Below, one piece after another: positions 4,968 to 39,537 of a stretch of DNA of 64,000 bases. Source of the stretch: Bacilli bacterium (GTDB taxonomy: Bacteria > Bacillota_I > Bacilli_A > RFN20 > CAG-826); NCBI GenBank assembly GCA_049419605.1, contig JBMSKF010000002.1, positions 26,026 through 90,025 of the forward strand, given 5' to 3'. The notes under the pieces are model-generated. The model did not search any database, was not told the origin of the DNA, and worked only from the letters and a program-made list of their open reading frames with translations. Position 1 is the stretch's first letter. Each line of letters opens with the position of its first letter. Both the position numbers and the translations under genes were made by a program.

Positions 4968-6089
4968 ATGAGATTTACAGTCCTTCGTGAAGAACTACTT
5001 AAGGCAATTAATATTTCAAGTAAAGCTATTGCAGTTAAGACCCCTATTCCTGTGCTTAGTAATTTTAAATTAGTCGTGGATGATAAAGGATTAACGATTG
5101 TGAGTTCCAACAATGAATTATCAATCGTAACAAGAGTACCTTTTGCCAATAAAGGAAAAACTTTGTTAACCGATACCAGAAATGGTGGAACTTTGGTGAA
5201 TGCTAAATTATTTGGAGAAATTGCTCGTAAAGTCGAAGGCGCTCAATTAACGGTGGAATTATTCGATGACACCATTGTTAATGTGAGTGATGGTCGATCA
5301 ACGTATAAACTCAACTCCATTAAAGTGGAAGAATATCCAGAATTAGATTTGGATACAACGGGCGTTTCTTTAGAAATTGAAACCAAAGTTTTGAAAAAAG
5401 TCGTAGAACAAACCGCTTTTGCTGCTTCTACAAAAGAACAACGACCCATTATGACTGCGGTTAATTTAGAAGCTTCTGATGGTAAGTTGGTTGCAACTGC
5501 AACTGATTCTGCTCGATTATCAAGAAAACAAATTAATATCAACAAACCCGTTAAGTTTGTGAGTAATGTTCCCGCAAGGACATTGATTGAAGTTACCTCC
5601 ATGATGGAACACGAAGCCATGATTAATCTTTCTTTCACTGAAAAGAGAGCAACCTTTGAATTTGGAAACACACTCGTTATTTCTCGATTGATTGGTGGAG
5701 AATATCCCAACACCTCTAATATCATTCCTAAAACCTCCAATTATTATTTAGTGGCCAATGCAAAAGAACTATTGGCAGTCATGGAACGGGTTGCCTTATT
5801 ATCAGTGGAAAGAGAAAATGTTGTGAAGCTTACCATGAGCGAAACCGCGGTTGAAGTTTCTAGTAAATCTGCACAAATTGGATCTGCAAGTGAACCTTTA
5901 ACCAAATTTTCCTTCAATGGTGATCGTTTTGAAGTAAGTTTTAACGCCTTTTACCTCATGGAAGCCATTCGTGCTTTTGGGGCTGAAGATATCAAAATTG
6001 GATTTATTGGCGATATGAGACCATTTGTCTTGAAAAACGATAAAGATGACTCCCTCATCCAGTTAGCAACGCCAGTGCGCACGTATTAA
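4968..6089 (+). CDS. dnaN: DNA polymerase III beta sliding clamp
   Basis: 373 aa in the canonical position after dnaA. It has typical beta-clamp length and sequence character, with an AAGGAG Shine-Dalgarno upstream. Confidence 0.95.
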   Translation: MRFTVLREELLKAINISSKAIAVKTPIPVLSNFKLVVDDKGLTIVSSNNELSIVTRVPFANKGKTLLTDTRNGGTLVNAKLFGEIARKVEGAQLTVELFDDTIVNVSDGRSTYKLNSIKVEEYPELDLDTTGVSLEIETKVLKKVVEQTAFAASTKEQRPIMTAVNLEASDGKLVATATDSARLSRKQININKPVKFVSNVPARTLIEVTSMMEHEAMINLSFTEKRATFEFGNTLVISRLIGGEYPNTSNIIPKTSNYYLVANAKELLAVMERVALLSVERENVVKLTMSETAVEVSSKSAQIGSASEPLTKFSFNGDRFEVSFNAFYLMEAIRAFGAEDIKIGFIGDMRPFVLKNDKDDSLIQLATPVRTY

Positions 6090-6151: not shown

Positions 6152-6176
6152 ATGGTAAAATTATAGAGGTTTAAAC

Positions 6177-6403
6177 ATGGAAAAAGAATCGACTCAATCG
6201 GAAATTGTCATTCATACCCCTTATATTCAATTAGGGCAATTAATGAAGATCGCTGGGTTGATTGAAACAGGGGGCCAAATTAAATCATTTTTAAGCCAAA
6301 ACCCAATCCAAGTTAACCAGCAACCGGAACAACGCCGGGGGCGTAAACTCTATCCTGGGGATCAAGTCATGGTGCAAAAACACCTGATTATTATCAAAGG
6401 TTT

Positions 6404-6407
<4 letters not shown>
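6177..6407 (+). CDS. yaaA: S4-domain RNA-binding protein (YaaA/RlbA-like)
   Basis: 76 aa with an S4-like 'IQLGQLMKIAGLIETGGQIKSFL...VNQQPEQRRGRKLYPGD'. It keeps the conserved Firmicutes position between dnaN and recF. Confidence 0.8.
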
Positions 6408-9453
<3,046 letters not shown>

Positions 9454-9464
9454 GGAGAAGGTGT

Positions 9465-12035
9465 ATGGCAGATAATAAAGATCCAAAAGTTGAGGGTGTG
9501 ATTCAAGAAGGCATCGAAGCTGGTTTAAAAGACGTCGATATTTCTAACGAAGTACGGACTGCATTTTTAGACTATTCGATGTCTGTTATTGTCTCGCGGG
9601 CTATCCCTGATGTGCGTGATGGTTTAAAGCCAGTGCATCGTCGGATTATTTTTGGCATGAATGAATTAGGGATGCAATCCGATAAACCCTATAAAAAATC
9701 AGCGCGTATCGTTGGGGATGTCATGGGTAAATTTCACCCTCACGGTGACCAAGCGATTTACTCAACCCTTGTTCGTTTAGCTCAACCTTTCTCGATGCGG
9801 TACACCCTTGTCGATGGTCATGGTAACTTCGGATCCGTCGATGGTGATGAAGCGGCAGCGATGCGTTATACCGAAGCCAGAATGGCAAAGATGGCCATGG
9901 AAATGGTCAAAGATATTGACGATGAAACCGTTGATTTTGTTGATAACTATGATGGGACAGAAAAAGAACCAGTTGTATTACCCTCTCGCTTTCCTAACCT
10001 CTTAGTCAATGGTGGTTCAGGAATTGCGGTTGGGATGGCGACCAATATGCCAACCCACAACTTAAGAGAAGTCGTGAGTGCCATTAAAGCTTATTCTAAA
10101 AATCCTGACATCGATGTTTTAGAATTGATGCAAGATCACATTCAAGGTCCTGATTTCCCTACAGGCGGAATCATTCTTGGTAAAGCAGGTATTCGCCAAG
10201 CCTATGAAACTGGAACCGGGTCGTTGGTGATTCGTTCCAAAGTCGATATTCAAGAATTTGAAAATGGAAAAAAACGAATTATCGTTAAGGAAATTCCTTA
10301 CCAAGTAAACAAAGCTTCCATGATTGAAACCATCGCTGATTTAGTGAGAAATAAAGTCATCGAAGGTATTACCGATATTCGTGACGAATCCAACAAAAAC
10401 GGAATTCGTGTCGTCATCGAAGTTCGTCGAGATATTATTCCAGAAGTCTTACTGAATCAACTCTATAAACATACCCAACTTCAAGTTAGTTTTGGCATTA
10501 TTAACCTTGCCCTTGTGAACGGTCAACCCAAAGTGCTATCACTGAAATCGATGATTCAACATTATCTCGATCATCAAATTGAAGTGGTAGAAAGAAGAAC
10601 ACGGTATCAATTAACTAAAGCTGAAGATCGCATTCATATCGTAAATGGTTATCTTATCGCTATCAACAATATTGATGCAATCGTTGATATTTTAAAGAAA
10701 TCCGCAAACATCGATGTAGCCAGAACCACATTAGCGCAAAAGTTTAGTCTTTCTGAAAAACAAACTAAAGAAATAGTCGACATGCCTTTACGACGATTAA
10801 CTGGTTTAGAAAAACAAAAACTAGAAGACGAAAAACTTCAATTAGAAAAGAATATTGCCTATTACAAACAATTACTTGGTAATCGCCAAATGGTTGTGGA
10901 TGTGATTCTGCAAGACTTGGATGTCATTGCCAATAAGTTTGGCGATGACCGCATGACGGAAATTTCAGATAACCTCTCTTCAATTGAAGACGAAGATCTC
11001 ATTCCGGAAACCAGTATTGTCATTACCATGACACAAAATGGTTATATTAAGCGACAATTACCCGAAGTATTCCGAACCCAAAATCGTGGTGGCCGAGGGG
11101 TTAAAGGTGCTGGTTTAAATGAAAACGATATTGTTTCCATTATTGTCAACGCCAGAACCCACACGGATATTTTATTTTTCTCCAACCTAGGAAAAGTTTA
11201 TCGCTTGCGCGGTTATCAAATTCCTGAATTTGCACGGACTGCAAAAGGTATTCCGGTTGTGAACTTATTGAGTTTGGAAAAACAAGAAACCATCAAATCG
11301 ATTATTTCTGTTGATGAATACACTGAAGGTCATTACCTATTCTTCATCACAGAAAAAGGTGTCGTTAAGCGCACAGAAATAAAAGAATTTGAATCGATTC
11401 GCCAAAACGGAAAAATTGCCATCTCACTCAGAGAGGGTGATATGTTACTTGATGTCAAACAAACCACCGGTAATCTATTGGTCAGTTTAGCCTCATCCAC
11501 TGGTAAGATGGTGACCTTCCCGGAAAGTGAAGTTCGCGATATGGGAAGAACTGCGGCAGGTGTTCGCGGTATGAAGTTAGCAGAAGGCGCCAAAGTCATC
11601 GGTGTATCCACCACTTCAGAGGGTAAATATATCCTTGTTGTAACGAACAAAGGTTTTGGAAAGATGACTGCCTTTGAAGAATATCGTCAAACCAAACGCG
11701 GAGCAAAAGGGGTTAATACCATTAAAGCTTCTGATAAAAATGGAAACCTTATCGCCTTAAAAGCTGCTAATGGTGATGAAGATTTATTAGTCGTCACCAA
11801 AGCAGGTGTCATCATCCGTATTTCCTTAACACAGGTCCGAGTGATCGCTCGTTCTACTCAAGGTGTGCGTTTAATTCGATTGGGTGAAAAAGAATTTGTT
11901 TCCTCAATTGCGATTGTTGAACCAAGTTTAGAAGAACCAACCGAAGAAGTTGAAACCGTAGAACTAGACAATCCTAACGAGCCAGAAACCCCAGACACAG
12001 ATGAAGGGGATGACGACGAAGAAGTGGAGGCTTAG
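9465..12035 (+). CDS. gyrA: DNA gyrase subunit A (with an acidic C-terminal tail)
   Basis: A QRDR-type 'HPHGDQAIYSTLVRLAQ' and the active-site region 'AAMRYTEARM'. The C-terminal beta-pinwheel repeats end in an E/D-rich tail. Confidence 0.97.
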   Translation: MADNKDPKVEGVIQEGIEAGLKDVDISNEVRTAFLDYSMSVIVSRAIPDVRDGLKPVHRRIIFGMNELGMQSDKPYKKSARIVGDVMGKFHPHGDQAIYSTLVRLAQPFSMRYTLVDGHGNFGSVDGDEAAAMRYTEARMAKMAMEMVKDIDDETVDFVDNYDGTEKEPVVLPSRFPNLLVNGGSGIAVGMATNMPTHNLREVVSAIKAYSKNPDIDVLELMQDHIQGPDFPTGGIILGKAGIRQAYETGTGSLVIRSKVDIQEFENGKKRIIVKEIPYQVNKASMIETIADLVRNKVIEGITDIRDESNKNGIRVVIEVRRDIIPEVLLNQLYKHTQLQVSFGIINLALVNGQPKVLSLKSMIQHYLDHQIEVVERRTRYQLTKAEDRIHIVNGYLIAINNIDAIVDILKKSANIDVARTTLAQKFSLSEKQTKEIVDMPLRRLTGLEKQKLEDEKLQLEKNIAYYKQLLGNRQMVVDVILQDLDVIANKFGDDRMTEISDNLSSIEDEDLIPETSIVITMTQNGYIKRQLPEVFRTQNRGGRGVKGAGLNENDIVSIIVNARTHTDILFFSNLGKVYRLRGYQIPEFARTAKGIPVVNLLSLEKQETIKSIISVDEYTEGHYLFFITEKGVVKRTEIKEFESIRQNGKIAISLREGDMLLDVKQTTGNLLVSLASSTGKMVTFPESEVRDMGRTAAGVRGMKLAEGAKVIGVSTTSEGKYILVVTNKGFGKMTAFEEYRQTKRGAKGVNTIKASDKNGNLIALKAANGDEDLLVVTKAGVIIRISLTQVRVIARSTQGVRLIRLGEKEFVSSIAIVEPSLEEPTEEVETVELDNPNEPETPDTDEGDDDEEVEA

Positions 12036-30926: not shown

Positions 30927-31438
30927 AACCAAAGAGAATTGTTGTTACACCATACAACCCACTATGGAAGTGGTCTTTTGTGTTGATTCGTAAACGATTA
31001 CAACGAGTTTTAGACACTTTTAATGAATCCATTCACCATGTTGGTAGCACTTCGGTTGAAGGACTTCCTGCAAAACCCATTATTGATATCGATGTAGAAA
31101 TTAAATCTTTCAATGGATTTGAAAAAGTTAAAGAAAAATTACAACGGCTTGGTTATCGGCATGTTGGCGATCAAGGAATTAAAGGACGAGAAGTGTTTAA
31201 ATTAAAAAGTTGGAGCCTTCTTCCTAAACATCATCTGTATGTTTGTGTGTCTGGATCATCTGAACTCAATAGACACATTGCATTCAGGAATTATTTAATC
31301 GCGAATCCCAAAACTAAAGAAGCCTATGGAAAACTCAAGATAGAAGCAGCAAAAAAGCATCCATATGACATGGATGCTTATTTAAAGATGAAGGGTGAAT
31401 TAATCAATAAAGTTTATCAGGAATTAGGGTTAGATTAA
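30923..31438 (+). CDS. GrpB-family protein (nucleotidyltransferase-fold, UPF0157)
   Basis: 'HHVGSTSVEGLPAKPIIDIDV' and 'FRNYLIANP...YGKLK' are typical of GrpB. Confidence 0.8.
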   Translation: MKPKRIVVTPYNPLWKWSFVLIRKRLQRVLDTFNESIHHVGSTSVEGLPAKPIIDIDVEIKSFNGFEKVKEKLQRLGYRHVGDQGIKGREVFKLKSWSLLPKHHLYVCVSGSSELNRHIAFRNYLIANPKTKEAYGKLKIEAAKKHPYDMDAYLKMKGELINKVYQELGLD

Positions 31439-32202
31439 GCTAAGATGATGCCGATAAAGACTAACCAGGCTAGGATGGATTTACCAAACAAACTTAACCA
31501 AACATAACTCTTTTCTCCGTAGACATAATCTTTCCATTTGCCAACGCGAGCATATTGTAAGATTTGGTTGAAAGCAAAGAGGTTAAAGACCAAGAAGTAG
31601 AAACTTAAACCTGGTAAGACGAACCAAGGTAAGACTGATAAATCACCAATGTTTAACATGTAGATGACGATGATTACCCAAGGGATTAAACCTGCAATCC
31701 AACCAATCCAGTGAGCAGTCCAATCTGTTTTGGTACGGCTAGGAGGATTCATTTTTTCCATCAAGAGACCCAGTAAGTTCATCACCGCGTTAATCCCAAA
31801 GACACTGAGTAAGCCTTCGATGGTAGTGACACCAAACATGATGGATAAGAGCACGATCATAATGGAAGAAGATAAAGCGTATTCATACCAACGTAAAGGA
31901 TTGATTCCTTTTTCAACATTGGCGACATATTGTTTCTTAAAAGGCACTGAGATTAAGAAGTGGAAAAGGGCGCTCAATAAGATGAAACTAGCGGCAAGAA
32001 TCGCCACTGGTATTTGAAATAACACATCTTCAAAAGAAAAGTACGGAATGGTTGAGTTTTGGATGAAAAACCTTCCCACGACATAAATTGAAGGTCTAAA
32101 GTCACGGAATAATGGAACCGTTAAGGCGAGGATTAACAAGGCAATCCCTTGGACAAGGTGAACCAAGCCCATCTTCAAATTGAAACTAATTAATTTATTC
32201 AT
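31435..32202 (-). CDS. Heliorhodopsin (inverted-topology 7-TM retinal protein)
   Basis: 255 aa with 7 TM helices. Motif-for-motif it resembles heliorhodopsin 48C12 as I recall that sequence: 'LSALFHF', 'RWYEYALSSS' (Glu107), 'FGINAVMNLLG', 'IAGLIPW', 'FNLFAFNQILQY', 'GKW' and 'LSLFGKSILAW'. Lys241 (codon 31480-31482) sits at the Schiff-base position. An AGGAG Shine-Dalgarno is present. Confidence 0.85.
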   Translation of the reverse strand: MNKLISFNLKMGLVHLVQGIALLILALTVPLFRDFRPSIYVVGRFFIQNSTIPYFSFEDVLFQIPVAILAASFILLSALFHFLISVPFKKQYVANVEKGINPLRWYEYALSSSIMIVLLSIMFGVTTIEGLLSVFGINAVMNLLGLLMEKMNPPSRTKTDWTAHWIGWIAGLIPWVIIVIYMLNIGDLSVLPWFVLPGLSFYFLVFNLFAFNQILQYARVGKWKDYVYGEKSYVWLSLFGKSILAWLVFIGIILA

Positions 32203-32273
32203 AGATTTCTCCTAAGAGCAATATATCACTCTTAGTTATTACCTAACTTAAAGATGCTTGCCGTGAAGAGAAA

Positions 32274-32516
32274 TTATTTCTTATTTGCTTTTATTTTCGA
32301 AGACTTCACTACAATCCATCCCTTTTCAATAAAGAGTTTCCATAAGGCCATGGAGTGGCCGCGACCAAGTTTGTATTCCTTAGCTAACCAATCAACAAAT
32401 TTACTTGCAGTAAGATCGGGCGTAAGAAGACCGTCTTTTGCAGCTTTGTTTTTAATAGCGTCTGTTGTGGTTTTGGTGATGGCCATGATGTTAGCGATAT
32501 AAGCTTGAAATGACAT
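32274..32516 (-). CDS. DUF4287-domain protein
   Basis: 80 aa. 'MSFQAYIANI...T', 'FVDWLAKEYKLGRGHSMALW' is the typical DUF4287 pattern. Confidence 0.75.
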   Translation of the reverse strand: MSFQAYIANIMAITKTTTDAIKNKAAKDGLLTPDLTASKFVDWLAKEYKLGRGHSMALWKLFIEKGWIVVKSSKIKANKK

Positions 32517-32526
32517 ATGATTTCCT

Positions 32527-33792
32527 CTATAAAGTATTTCCGAATGTTGCTACGACTTGATTTAAAAAAGATTCGTATTCATCTAAGAGAGCAAAATAAG
32601 CTTCACTTTCTGAAAAATTAAAATTGACATCAAAGTTATTACCTTGACCTGATCCAATCCTAGTAATGAGCGACGTGTTACGCATTGCTTCTATTAAACC
32701 TTCCAAGGTGACCCTTGAGGCATAATCATATCCATAACCCCATGTTCTTGATTCATCCTGGTAGTATGTTACACCAAATAAAATATTTGAAAGATTGGCT
32801 TCGGGGTTATTGAACAACGCTAGATAATGATAGGTCTCTTCGACTGGATTAAGAACTTTCATTTCAAAATCATGAACCGAATCATTGATCATCGTGATGT
32901 AAATATGATTATTTTCGTCTTGCATTAGATAACGTCTACCTACAACCAATTGATTTTCATAAATTTCATTAACATATGCTTCGGCATCTCGAAACAACCT
33001 TTGATCGTTTATAAAAATGGCATCTAAATCAAGATCAATGCGAATATCAATCACAACCTTTCCATATATTTCATATTGAAAGGTCGAAGAAGAAGTTTTA
33101 TAAATGACATATTTTGTTTCATTCACGATAAAGAGTTGTAAATTTTCTGTATTGATGTTGATTAGATTCAAATAATGTTGATTGTCGATGATGAGTTGGG
33201 TTGACTGGAGTATTTTTTGGATGTTGTTTCTCGTCTCAGCATATTGTTCGTTTAAAGCTGCATTTTCTGATTCTGCAACCACTTCTCTAACAAGATCAAC
33301 CACCCCATAATTTAATGGTGTGATGTACTCATTTAGTAATTCATAAACCTTATTTAATTCAATGTTGGTCATTAAACCACCTGCGATGTTTCTGGACTCT
33401 AGTTCGGTAATGATAGAGGGATCGTTAATCAAATAACAGTTAGTTTCACCATAACAAGCATCATTAATCAGGCCTGACCGCCCACCCAATAAAACGACAC
33501 CCACACTGACGGCCAATGCGACACTTGCACTGGCGGCGATAATTGGTTTTAAAGGTAATTTTTTCTGTTCAATTTTATCTAAGCTATCCTTGTCGTTAAA
33601 GTAATCTAAGGGCACCTCAAAATAAACACAAATGAGTTTGAGACTATTGATGTGAATCTGTCTTGTTCCCTTCTCCCAATTACTAATGGTGGTGTTGTTA
33701 ACAAAAATAGCTTTAGCTAACTCAGCTTGAGAAATACCTTTTTTAGTTCTTAATTGGCGAAGTTTTTCACCGATGATGTTTTGTTGATTCAT
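32527..33792 (-). CDS. Membrane-tethered XRE-family transcriptional regulator (HTH, TM helix, ~300-aa extracytoplasmic domain), paralog 1
   Basis: A Cro/C1 HTH 'LRQLRTKKGISQAELAKAIFVNNTTISNWEKGTR' and one TM helix 'IIAASASVALAVSVGVVLL'. The outside domain starts 'NDACYGETNCYLINDPSII'. Confidence 0.8.
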   Translation of the reverse strand: MNQQNIIGEKLRQLRTKKGISQAELAKAIFVNNTTISNWEKGTRQIHINSLKLICVYFEVPLDYFNDKDSLDKIEQKKLPLKPIIAASASVALAVSVGVVLLGGRSGLINDACYGETNCYLINDPSIITELESRNIAGGLMTNIELNKVYELLNEYITPLNYGVVDLVREVVAESENAALNEQYAETRNNIQKILQSTQLIIDNQHYLNLININTENLQLFIVNETKYVIYKTSSSTFQYEIYGKVVIDIRIDLDLDAIFINDQRLFRDAEAYVNEIYENQLVVGRRYLMQDENNHIYITMINDSVHDFEMKVLNPVEETYHYLALFNNPEANLSNILFGVTYYQDESRTWGYGYDYASRVTLEGLIEAMRNTSLITRIGSGQGNNFDVNFNFSESEAYFALLDEYESFLNQVVATFGNTL

Positions 33793-33820
33793 GTAACGTT
33801 AAACCTCTAGATCTTTGTAT

Positions 33821-35200
33821 TTAATAAACAATCGCATCTAGCGTAAAAGTATCGTCTAGTAAAAATTGGAAAATTTCCTCAAGTTCAAGATACGTATCGG
33901 CGACCGTTTGATCGATCAAGTCTGAATGGAAAATGGATTTATCTTTTGCCCAATCCAACCAATCTTGTAATGTGAAATCTTGACCCAACATTTCTTGATC
34001 GATCCGGTAAGAAATACCTCCTCCACTTATGGGGAGGACCAAACTTGTATAACCATAGTCATAAACATTTAAACTTAACGAGGGTAAGTAGGTTTCATAA
34101 CCACCATTAAAACCAGCCCCAATTGAATAGGTTCTCGTTGAATTGAAAGGATTGTGTTGGATTGAGAAGAAAGGAACCTCTAGCGCATAAATGGGGTGGT
34201 CTTTCATGTAATAATAAATTCCATTTTGAATTATATAAATTCCATCCTCCGTTTCAAAAAAGTTTACGGTAATCTTTGTTGATTCATTTTCATATAGAAA
34301 TGGACTGGTATTAAAGACATTTTCAAAAGGATAACTTTCAACAAAGTGATCATAGATGACTTTGGGTGAAAGATAACTTTTGTCACCAAAATAGATTGTG
34401 TTCAACTCCAATTGAATATTAAAAACATATTGTTGAGTGCTATAAATTTCATATTTAAATACATCGGTGGATATCTTATAAATAATATGTTTTTCCAAAT
34501 TAAACCCAGACCCCAAATAAAATAATTGATTACCCAAGGGGTTGCTTGTGTCTAAATTAAAGACAGAAAGATTGGGAAATGGACTAGGCTGATTTTCGTT
34601 ATAGAAGTCATTCACAAGATTCTCTAGATTTTGTCTTATTTGTTCTGTTTCGGGAGGGAAATTTAAATAATATTGTTTTGTATTGATTTCATTAAGTTTT
34701 GATTGATTAAATTGATGGTCTTTATTTCCAACAGTAAATGTTTCCAAGAAATATTTTAATCTTTCCATTTCCACATTGGTCATTTGACCACCGCTAATGT
34801 TTCTTGAAGATAATTCACTAACAATCGACGGATCATCGATTAAATAACAAACCAGTTCCCCATAACAAGCTTCGTTATTGATATTGGCTCTACCATTTAA
34901 GGCGACAACCGTTAAACTAACAAGCATCGCCACTCCAGCACTGCCTGCAAGTAAAGCTTTTAATGGGACTTTTCTCCAAGACTCTTTCTTTTCATCTGGC
35001 TCTAAAAAATAAGAAACCGGAACACCAAAGTAATCACTCAGAGCTTTAAGGTTATCGGTTTGAATCTTACGAGTTCCTTTTTCCCAATTACTAATGGTGG
35101 TGTTTTTAACAAAAATAGCGGCAGCCAATTCTGCCTGACTTACTTTTCTTTTCGTTCTAAGTAATCGGAGTCTTTCCCCGGGTTCGATCTTAACTCTCAT
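33821..35200 (-). CDS. Membrane-tethered XRE-family transcriptional regulator, paralog 2
   Basis: It has the same architecture: 'LRLLRTKRKVSQAELAAAIFVKNTTISNWEKGTR', a TM helix, then 'NNEACYGELVCYLIDDPSIV'. I chose the start 'MRVKIEPGE' at 35200. Confidence 0.8.
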   Translation of the reverse strand: MRVKIEPGERLRLLRTKRKVSQAELAAAIFVKNTTISNWEKGTRKIQTDNLKALSDYFGVPVSYFLEPDEKKESWRKVPLKALLAGSAGVAMLVSLTVVALNGRANINNEACYGELVCYLIDDPSIVSELSSRNISGGQMTNVEMERLKYFLETFTVGNKDHQFNQSKLNEINTKQYYLNFPPETEQIRQNLENLVNDFYNENQPSPFPNLSVFNLDTSNPLGNQLFYLGSGFNLEKHIIYKISTDVFKYEIYSTQQYVFNIQLELNTIYFGDKSYLSPKVIYDHFVESYPFENVFNTSPFLYENESTKITVNFFETEDGIYIIQNGIYYYMKDHPIYALEVPFFSIQHNPFNSTRTYSIGAGFNGGYETYLPSLSLNVYDYGYTSLVLPISGGGISYRIDQEMLGQDFTLQDWLDWAKDKSIFHSDLIDQTVADTYLELEEIFQFLLDDTFTLDAIVY

Positions 35201-35267
35201 TAGACCTATTATAATCGATTCATTACTTTCTATTTTATTAAATAACAACACTTGATATAGTGGTTTT

Positions 35268-35681
35268 ATGCCACTAGATGTAACCCATAACTCAATTGAT
35301 TCTTATATCAAAAATCTTCCAGAAAACAGAAGGACGGATGTACTTTGGCTTGTTGAGAAAATGGAAAAAATTTCCAAACGCAAACCAAAGCTTTGGGGGT
35401 CTATCATCGGGTTTGGTCGACTGTATTACCGTTATCCTACCGGAAATGATGGATATATGCCTATCATTGCACTTTCCAGTCGCAAACAAGCATTGACATT
35501 ATATTTATCATTTAATTTAGAAAAAGAAGTGGAATTAAAAAATTTAGGAACATACAAAATTGGGAAAAGTTGTCTTTATATTAAAAAACTATCAGACATC
35601 CATTTAAAAGTACTCTTAACAATCATTAAAAAAGCTTATCTTCAATCGCTTGCCTATGATTTTATAAAAGTAATCGAATAA
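35268..35681 (+). CDS. DUF1801 (YdhG-like) domain protein
   Basis: 137 aa. 'IDSYIKNLPENRR...LWGSIIGFG' and 'ALTLYLS' are typical of DUF1801. Confidence 0.7.
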   Translation: MPLDVTHNSIDSYIKNLPENRRTDVLWLVEKMEKISKRKPKLWGSIIGFGRLYYRYPTGNDGYMPIIALSSRKQALTLYLSFNLEKEVELKNLGTYKIGKSCLYIKKLSDIHLKVLLTIIKKAYLQSLAYDFIKVIE

Positions 35682-35684
35682 TTG

Positions 35685-37703
35685 TTAGACTCTTGTTTTG
35701 ATTTGCGAACGATAAATATTCGCATAGGTTCCGTTGTTCGCAATTAATTGCTTGTGGGTGCCTTCTTCAACCTTTAAACCATTTTCTAAGACAACAATTT
35801 TGTCAGCATTTTTAATGGTAGATAATCGATGGGCAATTACAATTAACGTTCTCCCTTTTCTTGCTTTTTCTAGTGCTTTTTGAATTCGCATTTCGGTTTC
35901 TGTGTCGATATTTGCAGTGGCCTCATCCATGATTAAAATAGCGGGATCGTGAACAATGGCCCTTGCAAAAGAAATGAGTTGTTTTTCCCCCACGCTTAAA
36001 TTGGATCCACCACGTGATACGGGTTGTTGAATACCCTTTTCCAATTTGTCTAAGAGGTGGTCGCCACCAATATTTCTTAAAACCTTTTCCGCCTCCTCAT
36101 CGGTTACAGAACTGATTCCGAAACGAATATTATCTGCAATCGTACCTTTAAACATGACTGGATCTTGAATGATGATGCCTATGTGAGAACGGAAAGTCCG
36201 TTTTGGATGAGTCGTGATATCAACACCATCGACATAAATCTTGCCCATATCACCCTCTTTAAAATCATAAAACCGTAAGAGTAAATTTGTCAGGGTTGAT
36301 TTACCTGAACCTGTATGACCAACTAAACCGATCATTTGACCCGCGTCAATTTTTAAAGTGATGCCTTTAATAATGGGGTGACCTTTTTCATAAGAAAACC
36401 AAACATTATCGAATAAGATGTCGCCACGATATCTAGGAATGGTTGTTAAAGCGTTGTCTTCTTGTTCTCCATCAATAACCCTAAATATTCTTTCGCTTTT
36501 TACTAAGGAATGTTGGAGGTTTCCAATTTCTCTAAATAATGTGCCCACTGGTTCAATTAATCGAGACAAGTAATCGTTGTAAGCGTAAATAATACCAGCA
36601 CTGATAACGACACCACTGATGGACAAATAACCATAGCCAAAAAAGATAACGATAAAAGCAGTAACTAATGCCCCCACCAAGCGGATCATGTTCCAACCAA
36701 TGGAGAGATGTAAATGTTGTTCTTTCAGGATTTCTTTTTGGGTATCCAATGAAAGTTGATCAAACTTTTGTTCAATTGATTTTCTAAAGTTAAAGATTTG
36801 GAGGATAGAAATACCGTTAATAATTTCATTAAGCTGAGCAGTAATCATCGACGAGTTTTCATTAACTTTGACGGCGAGTTTGTTGAGTTTTTTCACAAAG
36901 AATCGCAACCAAACATAGACAACAGGAAAGAATATAAAAGTTAAGAACGCAAGAGTTGCGTTTAAATAAAACATTCCCACGTAGGCGAAGATAACAGCCA
37001 ACGAAGCATTTACTAACAAGTTCATAATCGTAGAAAATAAACCCATCATTCCACCTACATCACTGATAACGCGATTGGCAATCTTACCAGAAGGTTCACT
37101 TTCAAAATAAGACATCGGCATGCGTTGTAAAGACCTTACGGCATCTTTTCTTGCATCGCGAACCATGTTCACTGTGATCATCCCAGTACTAATGCGTTGG
37201 ATATATGTAAATAAAATTTGTAAAAGTAATCGTACAAACAATAATGCTATCAACCAAATCAATGGTTCAACGCTCGGTTGATAGAACGCGAACACTTCAT
37301 CGCGCGTTAAAGGTGTGACGTCATAAGTGAACGTTTGGTTGTCCGGTGTGAGAATAGTTAATTGGTTTCCATCCAATATTTTTTGGCCAATGACCACGAC
37401 ATCTTCAGAAAAATAATAACGAGTCCCTATCACAACAATTGACACTCCGTGATTGGTGATCGTTTCTTGTTGAAAGAATCGATTATTGTATTCAACAGCA
37501 TCAGTTGTTTCGGTTGTTTCATACCAGGGTTTTTCGATTCCTACTAAGTAATCATCTATGATAGTTTTTACAATTAAAGGCGCGACTAATCCAAGCAATT
37601 GAACAACCAACATCGCGGATATGGTTAAAGTTAACAACCCTTTGTAAGGAATAATGTAACGCCAAACTTTTTTAATGGTTTTGAACATATCTTTAATCCT
37701 CAA
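35685..37703 (-). CDS. ABC exporter, fused permease/ATPase subunit (with a large extracytoplasmic loop insert)
   Basis: Walker A 'GHTGSGKST', signature 'LSVGEKQ' and Walker B 'ILIMDEATA'. An insert of about 100 aa lies between TM1 and TM2. Confidence 0.9.
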   Translation of the reverse strand: MRIKDMFKTIKKVWRYIIPYKGLLTLTISAMLVVQLLGLVAPLIVKTIIDDYLVGIEKPWYETTETTDAVEYNNRFFQQETITNHGVSIVVIGTRYYFSEDVVVIGQKILDGNQLTILTPDNQTFTYDVTPLTRDEVFAFYQPSVEPLIWLIALLFVRLLLQILFTYIQRISTGMITVNMVRDARKDAVRSLQRMPMSYFESEPSGKIANRVISDVGGMMGLFSTIMNLLVNASLAVIFAYVGMFYLNATLAFLTFIFFPVVYVWLRFFVKKLNKLAVKVNENSSMITAQLNEIINGISILQIFNFRKSIEQKFDQLSLDTQKEILKEQHLHLSIGWNMIRLVGALVTAFIVIFFGYGYLSISGVVISAGIIYAYNDYLSRLIEPVGTLFREIGNLQHSLVKSERIFRVIDGEQEDNALTTIPRYRGDILFDNVWFSYEKGHPIIKGITLKIDAGQMIGLVGHTGSGKSTLTNLLLRFYDFKEGDMGKIYVDGVDITTHPKRTFRSHIGIIIQDPVMFKGTIADNIRFGISSVTDEEAEKVLRNIGGDHLLDKLEKGIQQPVSRGGSNLSVGEKQLISFARAIVHDPAILIMDEATANIDTETEMRIQKALEKARKGRTLIVIAHRLSTIKNADKIVVLENGLKVEEGTHKQLIANNGTYANIYRSQIKTRV

Positions 37704-39432
37704 GACCTGTCAGTTGAGTAATATATTGTCGCTTATACCAACCATCTTCTCGAATCAATGAGTCATGGGTGCCGCGTTGACTAATTTCACCTTGCTCCAA
37801 AACAAGAATAAAGTCTGCTTCTTGAATTGCGGAAAAACGGTGAGTCACAATAATATTAGTTTTCCCTTTTCTTAAATCTTTAAGGTGTTGCACAATCGTT
37901 CGTTCTGTTTTCATGTCAACCGCACTCAACGAATCATCGAGAATCAAGATTTGTGGATCTTTAATTAACGCCCTAGCAATCGATAATCGTTGCTTTTGTC
38001 CACCAGAAAGATTAACGCCGGTCTCACCCATCATGGTTTGCAAACCCGATTGTAAATAAGGTAAATCCTTTTCAAAGTCAGCCATTTTGACAGCACTTTT
38101 CACAACTTCATCGGAAGCATTAGGCTTCCCAATCTTGATGTTTTCTTCAACGGGTAATTTAAAAAGAATATGGGATTGAGGAACGTAGCCTACTAATTGT
38201 CTTATGTCTTCAATTTTAAATCTTTCGATGGGTGTGTTATCAATTAAAACAGATCCTTTTGATACATTAAATTCACGAAGTAATTGGCGAATTAAGGTTG
38301 ACTTGCCCGCTCCAGTTGGACCCACAATGCCTATCGTTTGTCCTTTTTGAATACTAAAAGAAATATTTTTAATTACGGGTTGTTTATCAAACGGATATTG
38401 AAAGGTGACACCTTTAAAATCTATTGTTTGAAAGTCGATAATGGTTTGAGAAGTAGAACTATCATGGACAATCGGTTGATGGTTCATGACTTCTTCCATC
38501 CGATCAATGGCAATCGTCGCTTGATTGAGTTGAGCAAAAATACCCGAGATTGAAATAAACGGACCAAATAACATCCCAATATAAGTCACAAAAGTAATTA
38601 ATCCACCTAACGACATCATTTGTTGAATAATGAAATATGTGCCAAAGGCAAAGGCGAGTGTATAAGCAATCCCATAAATCACTTCAAATAAAGGGTTAAA
38701 CCAGTTTTCAAATTTTACAATATAACGCCAGGACTCAATGTCATTGGTAATTTCTTGATGTTGCTTTTTAAGATCGATATCTTCCTGAACATAGGCGCGT
38801 ATAGCTTTTTGTCCTTCAACAGACTCCAACATTTTTTCCGTAAACGCAGCGTATATATCTCGGTGTTTTTTAAAGTATTGTCTTTTGCCTTCACGAACTA
38901 AATTAAGAATCGTTAACCCAATTGGCATGATGATGACTGAGATTAAAGTAAGTTGCCAACTGATGGTCACCATCATCAATGTTAATGTGATGATTATAAA
39001 TCCAATGTTAAAAACCAACCCTTCCAACAAACCTGTTGCCGATTGAATAATGGAATCTAAATCACCGGTTACTCGAGAAATTAAATCACCCTTCTGATAT
39101 TTTTCATAAAAACTAGAATCCATGTTAAATAAATGACCCAAGTATTTTTTTCGCATTGTGTGGGCGAGCTGTTGTGATTTTTTTACTGTCGTGAAGTTAT
39201 ATAAATAACTGAGTCCATACCGTATCACTGGAAAAGCAATTAGTGCACCACCTAAAAATAATAATGATTGATAAGTTAATCCACCTGAGATGATCGTGTC
39301 GATGGATAAACCAAGTAACCAACCTGGAATCAAGGCAAATAAAGCAATACTGATCAGTAAGACAAACATTAAAACATAAGTCTTCCATTCTTGTTTAACG
39401 TACCAACCAATATGTTTCAATAACTTGCCCAT
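37693..39432 (-). CDS. ABC exporter, fused permease/ATPase subunit (heterodimer partner)
   Basis: Walker A 'GPTGAGKST', signature 'LSGGQKQR' and Walker B 'ILILDDSLS'. It overlaps its partner by 11 nt. I chose the ATG at 39432; the ORF track starts at the TTG at 39441. Confidence 0.9.
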   Translation of the reverse strand: MGKLLKHIGWYVKQEWKTYVLMFVLLISIALFALIPGWLLGLSIDTIISGGLTYQSLLFLGGALIAFPVIRYGLSYLYNFTTVKKSQQLAHTMRKKYLGHLFNMDSSFYEKYQKGDLISRVTGDLDSIIQSATGLLEGLVFNIGFIIITLTLMMVTISWQLTLISVIIMPIGLTILNLVREGKRQYFKKHRDIYAAFTEKMLESVEGQKAIRAYVQEDIDLKKQHQEITNDIESWRYIVKFENWFNPLFEVIYGIAYTLAFAFGTYFIIQQMMSLGGLITFVTYIGMLFGPFISISGIFAQLNQATIAIDRMEEVMNHQPIVHDSSTSQTIIDFQTIDFKGVTFQYPFDKQPVIKNISFSIQKGQTIGIVGPTGAGKSTLIRQLLREFNVSKGSVLIDNTPIERFKIEDIRQLVGYVPQSHILFKLPVEENIKIGKPNASDEVVKSAVKMADFEKDLPYLQSGLQTMMGETGVNLSGGQKQRLSIARALIKDPQILILDDSLSAVDMKTERTIVQHLKDLRKGKTNIIVTHRFSAIQEADFILVLEQGEISQRGTHDSLIREDGWYKRQYITQLTGLED

Positions 39433-39537
39433 AATCTTCAATTTTCCAATAGCATTATACGCTTATTAATCATCGATTGTTTTGCTTTCAATACAAGGAA
39501 ATTTTCAAGTTCTCGGACGAGCGATGGGTGGTAAAAT

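Follow-up and report, generated by a model that had tools for sequence, protein, structure and literature searches.

Putative transmembrane regulators in a variable cassette beside a heliorhodopsin gene: a facultative neighbourhood in freshwater Bacilli

Does a heliorhodopsin gene that ends a same-strand string of genes for membrane-tethered transcription regulators belong to a light-sensing module with them? The question is raised by 64,000 nucleotides (nt) of the genome of a Bacilli bacterium (GenBank assembly GCA_049419605.1, contig JBMSKF010000002.1, positions 26,026 to 90,025 of the forward strand), referred to hereafter as the window, in which two XRE-type regulators with a transmembrane (TM) helix, XRE-TM2 and XRE-TM1, a DUF4287 protein and a heliorhodopsin (HeR) are encoded one after another on the minus strand. 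What HeR does has been uncertain ever since the first description of the family in 2018. Partners with experimental support are few, namely glutamine synthetase, photolyase and a heterodimeric ABC exporter, and a membrane-anchored transcription factor as partner would, if true, be the first direct link of a HeR to gene expression. An earlier note on this DNA had proposed the string as a candidate photosensory module. Comparison with relatives showed that the arrangement is real and recurrent, but that the linkage is facultative and restricted to one syntenic clade and that HeR has a promoter-like element of its own. The comparison lowers the odds of the photosensory reading. The explanation that we favour, with moderate confidence, is that ordinary transmembrane one-component regulators lie next to an autonomously promoted HeR. 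The locus would be a lineage-restricted, variable cassette, made up of a divergent DUF1801 gene, one or two XRE-TM genes and a DUF4287 gene, that lies between a BmrCD-like ABC exporter and the HeR gene.

The rhodopsin gene of the window encodes what is, judged by profile matches and conserved residues, a bona fide heliorhodopsin. The protein matched Pfam family PF18761 with an expect value (E) of 3.7e-78 (262.6 bits against a cutoff of 26.7) and the NCBIfam equivalog NF038020 with 259.6 bits against a cutoff of 100, and it aligned with the solved HeRs 6IS6 and 6SU3 at E about 1e-45. In the alignment to TaHeR (6IS6), the Schiff-base lysine in TM7, the counterion glutamate in TM3 and both conserved histidines were all present. 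Segments compared with 6IS6 included SLFGKSILAW (SLVAKSALAW in 6IS6) and RWYEYALSS (RWFEYSISA), as well as GLVHLVQ and ALFHFLI. As a member of the family it would be predicted to have an inverted topology, bind retinal, pass through a long photocycle and not pump.

The two regulators had been described as each carrying a Cro/C1 helix-turn-helix (HTH), one TM helix and an external domain of about 300 amino acids (aa), and the HTH_3 profile and hydropathy analysis bore this out. Both matched HTH_3 with 49 bits against a cutoff of 23 (E 6.4e-13 for XRE-TM1 and 4.8e-13 for XRE-TM2), and Foldseek matched the HTH fold to C.BclI, C.AhdI and SinR with a root-mean-square deviation of about 1.5 Å over 60 residues. 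By the Kyte-Doolittle scale each regulator has a single hydrophobic helix at approximately residues 79-103, after the HTH, flanked by four lysine and arginine residues before it and one after it. The only extracytoplasmic cysteines are C113 and C119 in XRE-TM1 and C112 and C118 in XRE-TM2, and there are none before the helix. The two-cysteine block was unvarying across 29 family members and the paralogues, which are 42% identical over the first ~265 residues, diverge beyond that point, in keeping with the earlier description of a conserved block followed by divergence. These features place the XRE-TM proteins among single-pass transmembrane one-component regulators with a cytoplasmic HTH; this topology and a disulfide within the C-x5-C block are probable.

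Within the TM helix, positions S88, A92, V95 and S96 were invariant. The motif S-A-x-x-A-L-x-V-S-x-G-V was also present in family members P0020, P0021, P0024 and P0025, two of which (P0020 and P0024) are confirmed to be unlinked to HeR. Because HeR-linked and HeR-unlinked regulators have the motif in common, it is a family feature and not a signature of contact with HeR. The family is small, with 28 clusters among 5.8 billion proteins. It is confined to one clade of freshwater Bacilli metagenome-assembled genomes (MAGs) and is, in detail, a new regulator family.

Membership in known groups was considered and rejected. The regulators are not of the BcrR type, since they have one TM helix and a ~300-aa external domain and not four TM helices. 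Nor do they belong with RodZ, as there was no match to HTH_25 or DUF4115 at E ≤ 0.01 and the external domain is of a different, unannotated family. An anti-phage defence reading was rejected because PADLOC gave generic HTH matches alone (HTH, RmrA and CapH models over residues ~2-80); the DUF4287, DUF1801, GrpB and 178-aa proteins had no matches to PADLOC defence models.

How consistently HeR and XRE-TM occur together was scored at the level of the locus, within the flanks available, and the search from the HeR side used one genome per GTDB species. Complete HeRs of 82-93% identity were found in 11 species, all freshwater Bacilli or Bacillota MAGs; beyond these, identity drops to 49% or less (Clostridia, Actinomycetota and others). 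The comparison of neighbourhoods that the earlier note had proposed gave a divided answer. An XRE-TM gene lay upstream of HeR on the same strand in seven of the 11 species representatives and at 16 of the 20 distinct HeR sequences, but the linkage was missing in the other four species and at 22 loci outside the clade.

The four species without linkage (L014, L016, L017 and L018) keep a HeR that is 82-87% identical and have no cassette. At L014 the ABC exporter genes end 72 nt before HeR and DUF1801, XRE-TM and DUF4287 are all missing; by HeR sequence clustering, the HeR of this locus is 3% diverged from that of L051, which bears an XRE-TM gene. At L016, L017 and L018 HeR occupies another chromosomal site, upstream of genes for a DHH-type protein, rplI and dnaB. 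Degenerate regulators were found as well. At L058 the regulator is truncated to its first 92 residues, the HTH only (5762-6037), beside an intact HeR that is identical to those of L008 and L046, both of which have intact regulators, and at L056 a 26-aa remnant of XRE-TM1 (7885-7962) lies beside an intact HeR.

The reverse situation was also seen. The divergent XRE-TM genes P0024, P0020 and P0036 have OsmC or DUF975 on one side and DUF4256 on the other, and the 1.5-7.6 kb of flank available contained none of HeR, DUF1801 and DUF4287. Since HeR is kept without the cassette and XRE-TM is kept without a nearby HeR, adjacency is facultative in both directions. The 22 loci outside the clade, where HeR is 34-49% identical, had no member of the XRE-TM family nearby.

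One of these distant loci, L022 from a Proteiniclasticum sp. MAG (HeR 46% identical), encodes a convergent protein with an XRE HTH and two TM helices (10900-11550), at a distance of 139 nt from the stop codon of HeR. This protein is not related to the XRE-TM family, and no other of the 22 loci has one like it; as Bacillota have many XRE proteins, we take it for background. In several relatives a different small XRE-HTH protein of ~195 aa, which has TM segments at its C-terminus, is encoded together with a membrane protein of ~316 aa; the pair lies on the strand opposite to HeR, 2-3 kb downstream of it (L014 12928-13524, L015, L045 and L078 5467-6054). The window does not contain this pair.

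Where the cassette is present, it is the most variable part of the region. One or two regulators are encoded depending on the locus, and between the same genomes HeR is 82-93% identical whereas XRE-TM is 39-58% identical. DUF4287 is missing in L051, L053 and L078 and is relocated behind HeR, near a second DUF1801 gene, in L004, L049, L050 and L052. DUF1801 adjoins the first XRE-TM gene wherever upstream sequence is available in the HeR clade; it is missing in L014 and in the HeR-less XRE-TM loci, and is gained or lost together with the cassette. The flanks (OsmC, 4HBT, DUF975, DUF4256 and GrpB) are syntenic across the loci of the clade. Because the flanks are syntenic too and the clade is narrow, adjacency of HeR and XRE-TM is expected from inheritance alone and is not independent evidence of a functional tie.

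The DUF4287 protein of the window matched PF14117 with 37.6 bits (cutoff 27) over positions 1-56 of the 60 in the profile. Hydropathy analysis found no hydrophobic segment in it, and it has no solved relative. The DUF1801 protein matched PF08818 with 27.5 bits against a cutoff of 27.2. Relocated DUF4287 genes are again head-to-head, 41 nt apart, with the second DUF1801 gene (L004 10392-11101; also L005, L006, L049, L050 and L052), which suggests that DUF4287 and DUF1801 functionally belong together, independent of HeR.

The features of the string and its surroundings are collected in Table 1. The four genes had been placed head-to-tail with gaps of 28, 10 and 71 nt and no intrinsic terminator between them. 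All three distances were recovered from the open reading frames (ORFs), with a start of XRE-TM2 on which homologues and the public gene call concur, and a terminator scan found no such site in the three intergenic gaps. The sole strong terminator-like hairpin lies ~56 nt past the HeR stop, within the 3' end of the convergent GrpB gene. The stop codons of HeR and GrpB overlap by 4 nt (31435-31438).

Table 1. Positions of genes and predicted signals in the window, counted from its first nucleotide (RBS, ribosome-binding site)
Feature	Coordinates	Strand	Size and context
XRE-TM2	ORF 33821..35251, gene 33821..35200	minus	459 aa, start ATG at 35200
XRE-TM1	32527..33792	minus	421 aa
External domains of the regulators	32527-33480 (XRE-TM1), 33821-34897 (XRE-TM2)	minus	
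DUF4287 gene	32274..32516	minus	80 aa, soluble; begins 10 nt past XRE-TM1 stop
HeR gene	31435..32202	minus	255 aa, final gene of same-strand string
Extended -10 promoter-like motif of HeR, TGATATATT	32220..32228	minus	followed by RBS AGGAG 32213..32209 and ATG 32202
Intrinsic-terminator-like hairpin	31355..31379	minus	11-bp stem, then T-run; ends string
Divergent control region, 67 nt	35201..35267		between XRE-TM2 and DUF1801; back-to-back -10 boxes
DUF1801 gene	35268..35681	plus	137 aa, divergent from XRE-TM2
BmrCD/YheIH-like heterodimeric ABC exporter pair	35685..39441	minus	582 aa + 672 aa, upstream on HeR strand

XRE-TM1 and DUF4287 have RBSs of their own near the preceding stop codons, a spacing that is consistent with a single transcript of XRE-TM2, XRE-TM1 and DUF4287 and with possible read-through into HeR. 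The absence of a terminator does not imply a single transcript, however, because a conserved extended -10 motif is present in the 71 nt ahead of HeR. The sequence TGnTATAnT was found 16-21 nt from the HeR ATG, just ahead of the AGGAG RBS, in 19 of 21 distinct HeR upstream sequences. It was also present in L014, L016, L017 and L018, where the sequence further upstream is unrelated. Both its consensus and this pattern of conservation fit an extended -10 promoter that accompanies HeR; for want of a good -35 box, it was missed by the promoter scan. The claim of a joint string thus stood as regards the terminators, but HeR appears to be promoted separately, by a conserved promoter-like element that is independent of the cassette.

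The other end of the string has candidate promoters as well. In the control region a TATAAT box (35213..35208, minus) lies 7 nt from the XRE-TM2 ATG and a TGaTATAGT box (35253..35261, plus) lies 6 nt from the DUF1801 ATG. Both boxes were conserved in position in 12 distinct loci, 6-10 nt from the starts (24 nt in L048), and neither gene has a Shine-Dalgarno sequence. From this spacing, the mRNAs of XRE-TM2 and DUF1801 are probably leaderless. Inverted repeats between the two boxes differ by lineage, an example being a 10-bp perfect repeat in L048.

At the HeR promoter-like element, a 7-bp perfect inverted repeat, CTAAGAG-N10-CTCTTAG (32212-32235), brackets the -10 box and overlaps the RBS. The repeat, which is found in the window and the L007/L009 lineage only, is not conserved and may be either a product of chance or a lineage-specific operator. 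A common operator for the XRE control region and the sequence upstream of HeR was rejected, as the longest k-mers in common were not above those of shuffled sequences except in L015. The exception there was an 11-mer (1 of 300 shuffles) that proved to be a palindromic, -35-like TTGCAA with A/T flanks.

What the regulators might respond to is suggested by their external domains. A model of full-length XRE-TM1 was poor (predicted local distance difference test, pLDDT, 57) and unreliable past residue 280, and its structure matches were dominated by the HTH. The external domain alone, taken from a typical member (P0010), gave a model with a pLDDT of 91.1 and a predicted template modelling score of 0.86, in which a short head with a disulfide, a helical bundle and two beta-sheets are predicted. 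Foldseek found no significant match for this model in the PDB (best E 0.22) or in BFVD. The domain belongs to no Pfam family; its lipoprotein homologues matched only a Listeria-Bacteroides repeat, in one long member, and a PDB profile search with the regulator gave matches to the HTH alone. The structural check proposed in the earlier note consequently ended with no well-known ligand-binding family matched in the PDB, BFVD or Pfam.

Relatives of the domain were found in another setting. An exhaustive profile search of 1.84 billion representatives returned 57 clusters, about 40 of which are proteins of 300-390 aa with a lipobox cysteine at approximately residue 20-27 followed by the same C-x5-C block (consensus C-K-G-D-P-x-C-Y-E-I-I-D...E-L..R-G-I.G-G.M-T-N.E). 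One member of this lipoprotein type is from Candidatus Xianfuyuplasma coldseepsis. The external domain of XRE-TM1 was closest to lipoprotein P0034, known from a 1.3 kb contig (48% identity over 302 aa, 253 bits), and that of XRE-TM2 to lipoprotein P0044 (46% identity over 323 aa, 277 bits), compared with ~110 bits for either domain against other XRE-TM subtypes. The same holds for every external-domain subtype of the XRE-TM family, whose nearest kin is a lipoprotein and not another XRE-TM protein. That the domains are nearer to particular lipoproteins than to other XRE-TM subtypes argues that the sensor domain was exchanged with lipoprotein genes several times. By these alignments the HTH, the TM helix and the cysteine block stayed constant during the exchange, and the external domain is, on the cluster counts, mainly a surface-lipoprotein domain that was repeatedly swapped into regulators. 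In the search for a matching lipoprotein in the same genome, a word-index query with the XRE-TM1 external domain found XRE-TMs only, and the window has no further copy of the domain. The search defines a previously unannotated extracytoplasmic C-x5-C domain common to surface lipoproteins and XRE regulators of Izemoplasma-like Bacilli, a finding that stands independent of the HeR question.

Under the explanation that we favour, these pieces would fit together as follows. Through the C-x5-C external domain the regulators most likely respond to a cue from outside the cell or from its surface, and the small-residue motif of the TM helix likely serves homodimerisation. Their targets would be their own, probably leaderless, operon (XRE-TM2, XRE-TM1 and DUF4287) and the back-to-back DUF1801 promoter. 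HeR may receive read-through transcription from this operon, yet would have its own extended -10 promoter and be a facultative neighbour, not an obligatory signalling partner.

Several observations weigh against this explanation. In a metagenome scan of the HeR clade, every recovered XRE-TM gene with downstream sequence was then followed by HeR, including at loci where DUF4287 is lost or moved and XRE-TM abuts HeR, which leaves room for some selection for the adjacency. Relative to DUF975 and DUF4256, the position of XRE-TM differs between HeR-bearing and HeR-less lineages, from which it follows that XRE-TM underwent one move, either to its place beside HeR or away from there. The HeR gene of L078 lacks the promoter motif and may depend on read-through. 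No signal, operator or regulon was identified for the regulators. Linkage was judged by loci, and genomes scored as unlinked could carry the partner gene elsewhere.

Read-through is also the starting point of the alternative that survives best, in which the XRE-TM proteins sense an external cue and set the expression of HeR, by read-through or at the HeR promoter, with no signalling between the proteins. The absence of terminators, the tight spacing and RBSs compatible with a polycistronic mRNA would all suit such a role, as would L078, which combines the missing promoter motif with just 89 nt between XRE-TM and HeR, and the CTAAGAG-N10-CTCTTAG repeat around the HeR -10 box in the window and L007/L009. 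We nevertheless consider it unlikely that HeR is a regulated target, given that the HeR promoter motif is unchanged in loci without regulators, that the repeat is not conserved in other lineages and that the XRE control and HeR upstream regions share nothing beyond the -35-like TTGCAA.

A different partner for HeR is encoded on the far side of the cassette. Cho et al. (2024) reported that OmrDE, a heterodimeric exporter, is bound by a HeR that raises its activity in light (PMC11109279), and the HeR of the window might act in the same way on the BmrCD-like exporter, with the XRE-TM/DUF1801/DUF4287 cassette as an unrelated insertion between the two. The exporter pair, whose best solved relative is Bacillus subtilis YheI (8T1P chain C, E 6.5e-134), is upstream on the HeR strand and has, as in OmrD/OmrE, one degenerate Walker B motif (ILILDDS, E to D, in the 582-aa subunit) and one canonical one (ILIMDEA in the 672-aa subunit). 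ABC transporters upstream of helR are a published neighbour group, for which binding and light-enhanced transport were shown experimentally (PMC11109279), and at L014 the exporter pair (6175-9928) directly adjoins HeR. This is the only locus at which it does so, and even there a terminator-like hairpin lies between them. In the window, 3.5 kb and an opposite-strand gene separate the pair from HeR, and neither the L004-type loci, where XRE-TM and HeR are retained, nor the HeR sites of L016-L018 have the pair. We judge the exporter to be quite an unlikely partner on this evidence.

Direct signalling between the neighbours was the reading with which the question began. Light-activated HeR would contact the TM helix or juxtamembrane region of the regulator and alter its DNA binding, a one-step path from light to transcription. 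The same-strand adjacency in seven of 11 species and at 16 of 20 distinct HeRs agrees with this, and it outlasts the loss or relocation of DUF4287 and changes in the number of paralogues. Both partners are membrane proteins and the TM helix of the regulators is conserved. HeRs are documented as regulating proteins encoded beside them (PMC9529153, PMC9769723, PMC11109279), and a type-1 rhodopsin has been found to bind an HTH regulator (PMC11217422). The pattern of presence and absence tells against it: HeR is kept at 82-87% identity without the cassette in four of 11 species and is unchanged beside a truncated regulator, XRE-TM genes occur at three loci with no HeR in the available flanks, and no similar neighbour is found at the 22 loci where HeR is 34-49% identical. 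Regulators unlinked to HeR have the same conserved TM motif. HeR comes with its own promoter-like element and is strongly conserved, whereas the regulators are fast-diverging and exchange their sensor domains. An external sensor domain of 300 aa, moreover, suggests an input other than HeR. We therefore regard the photosensory module as very unlikely.

Highly improbable is the variant in which HeR is a light-sensing co-receptor and the regulators combine light, through TM contact, with a surface cue, through the swappable lipoprotein-type domain; were it true, a rhodopsin would for the first time be seen to act directly on a membrane-bound transcription factor, and the facultative linkage would reflect a light input lost in some lineages.

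Whichever reading applies, the comparison names natural "knock-outs" for its study, namely HeR without the cassette, a truncated regulator beside HeR and XRE-TM without a nearby HeR. It also locates three candidate promoters and adds the BmrCD-like exporter as a competing partner candidate at the same locus.

Regulators of the kind that we favour here have known counterparts. Transmembrane transcription regulators (TTRs) form a widespread class, 56% of which are single-pass (PMC10269533). Like ToxR, TcpP, CadC and BcrR, the XRE-TM proteins would combine in one polypeptide a DNA-binding domain in the cytoplasm, a span through the membrane and a part outside the cytoplasm. The DNA-binding domain of ToxR and CadC is an OmpR-type winged helix, and the XRE-TM proteins differ in having a Cro/C1 domain (HTH_3) in its place. 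BcrR reportedly uses an XRE-type HTH; it spans the membrane with four TM helices and lacks a large external domain, in contrast to the one TM helix and the ~300-aa lipoprotein-type domain without structural match of the XRE-TM proteins.

Rhodopsins that signal through a neighbour provide a second comparison. In the SRI/SRII-HtrI/HtrII systems one operon encodes a photoreceptor and its signalling partner in the membrane, which receives the signal through contact between TM helices. Each Htr protein has two TM helices, HAMP domains and a methyl-accepting signalling domain with output to CheA, whereas Pfam found no HAMP- or methyl-accepting-type domain in the regulators of the window. The closest precedent for the mechanism first proposed here is that of Gloeobacter rhodopsin, which is reported to bind the HTH regulator GvTcR and to make gene expression light-dependent (PMC11217422). 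That rhodopsin is a type-1 proton pump, contact is reported to be via charged residues and no membrane anchor is mentioned for GvTcR (PMC11217422); the window, in contrast, pairs a HeR with membrane-anchored regulators that have large external domains.

Among HeRs themselves, ten neighbour groups have been described: glutamine synthetase (GS), NAD+ synthetase, photolyase, a MerR regulator, TerC, ABCT, SDR, alpha/beta hydrolase, DUF2177 and DUF2238 (PMC11109279). The present genes resemble these in being partner candidates by guilt-by-association, and the ten include one class of transcription regulator (MerR), but XRE-TM, DUF4287 and DUF1801 are not among them. XRE, HTH and DUF4287 do not occur in Bulzu et al. 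(2021). The earlier note knew of no described HeR partner of the XRE kind, and the published classes, which include MerR and ABC transporters and not XRE, agree with it. Another published arrangement to compare is OcHeR-OmrDE. The window differs from it in that a divergent DUF1801 gene and three more genes intervene and in that several relatives have no ABC pair. What the two share is a HeR, presumably non-pumping in the window, that is encoded on the same strand as, and downstream of, a heterodimeric pair of half-transporters in which one ATP site is degenerate.

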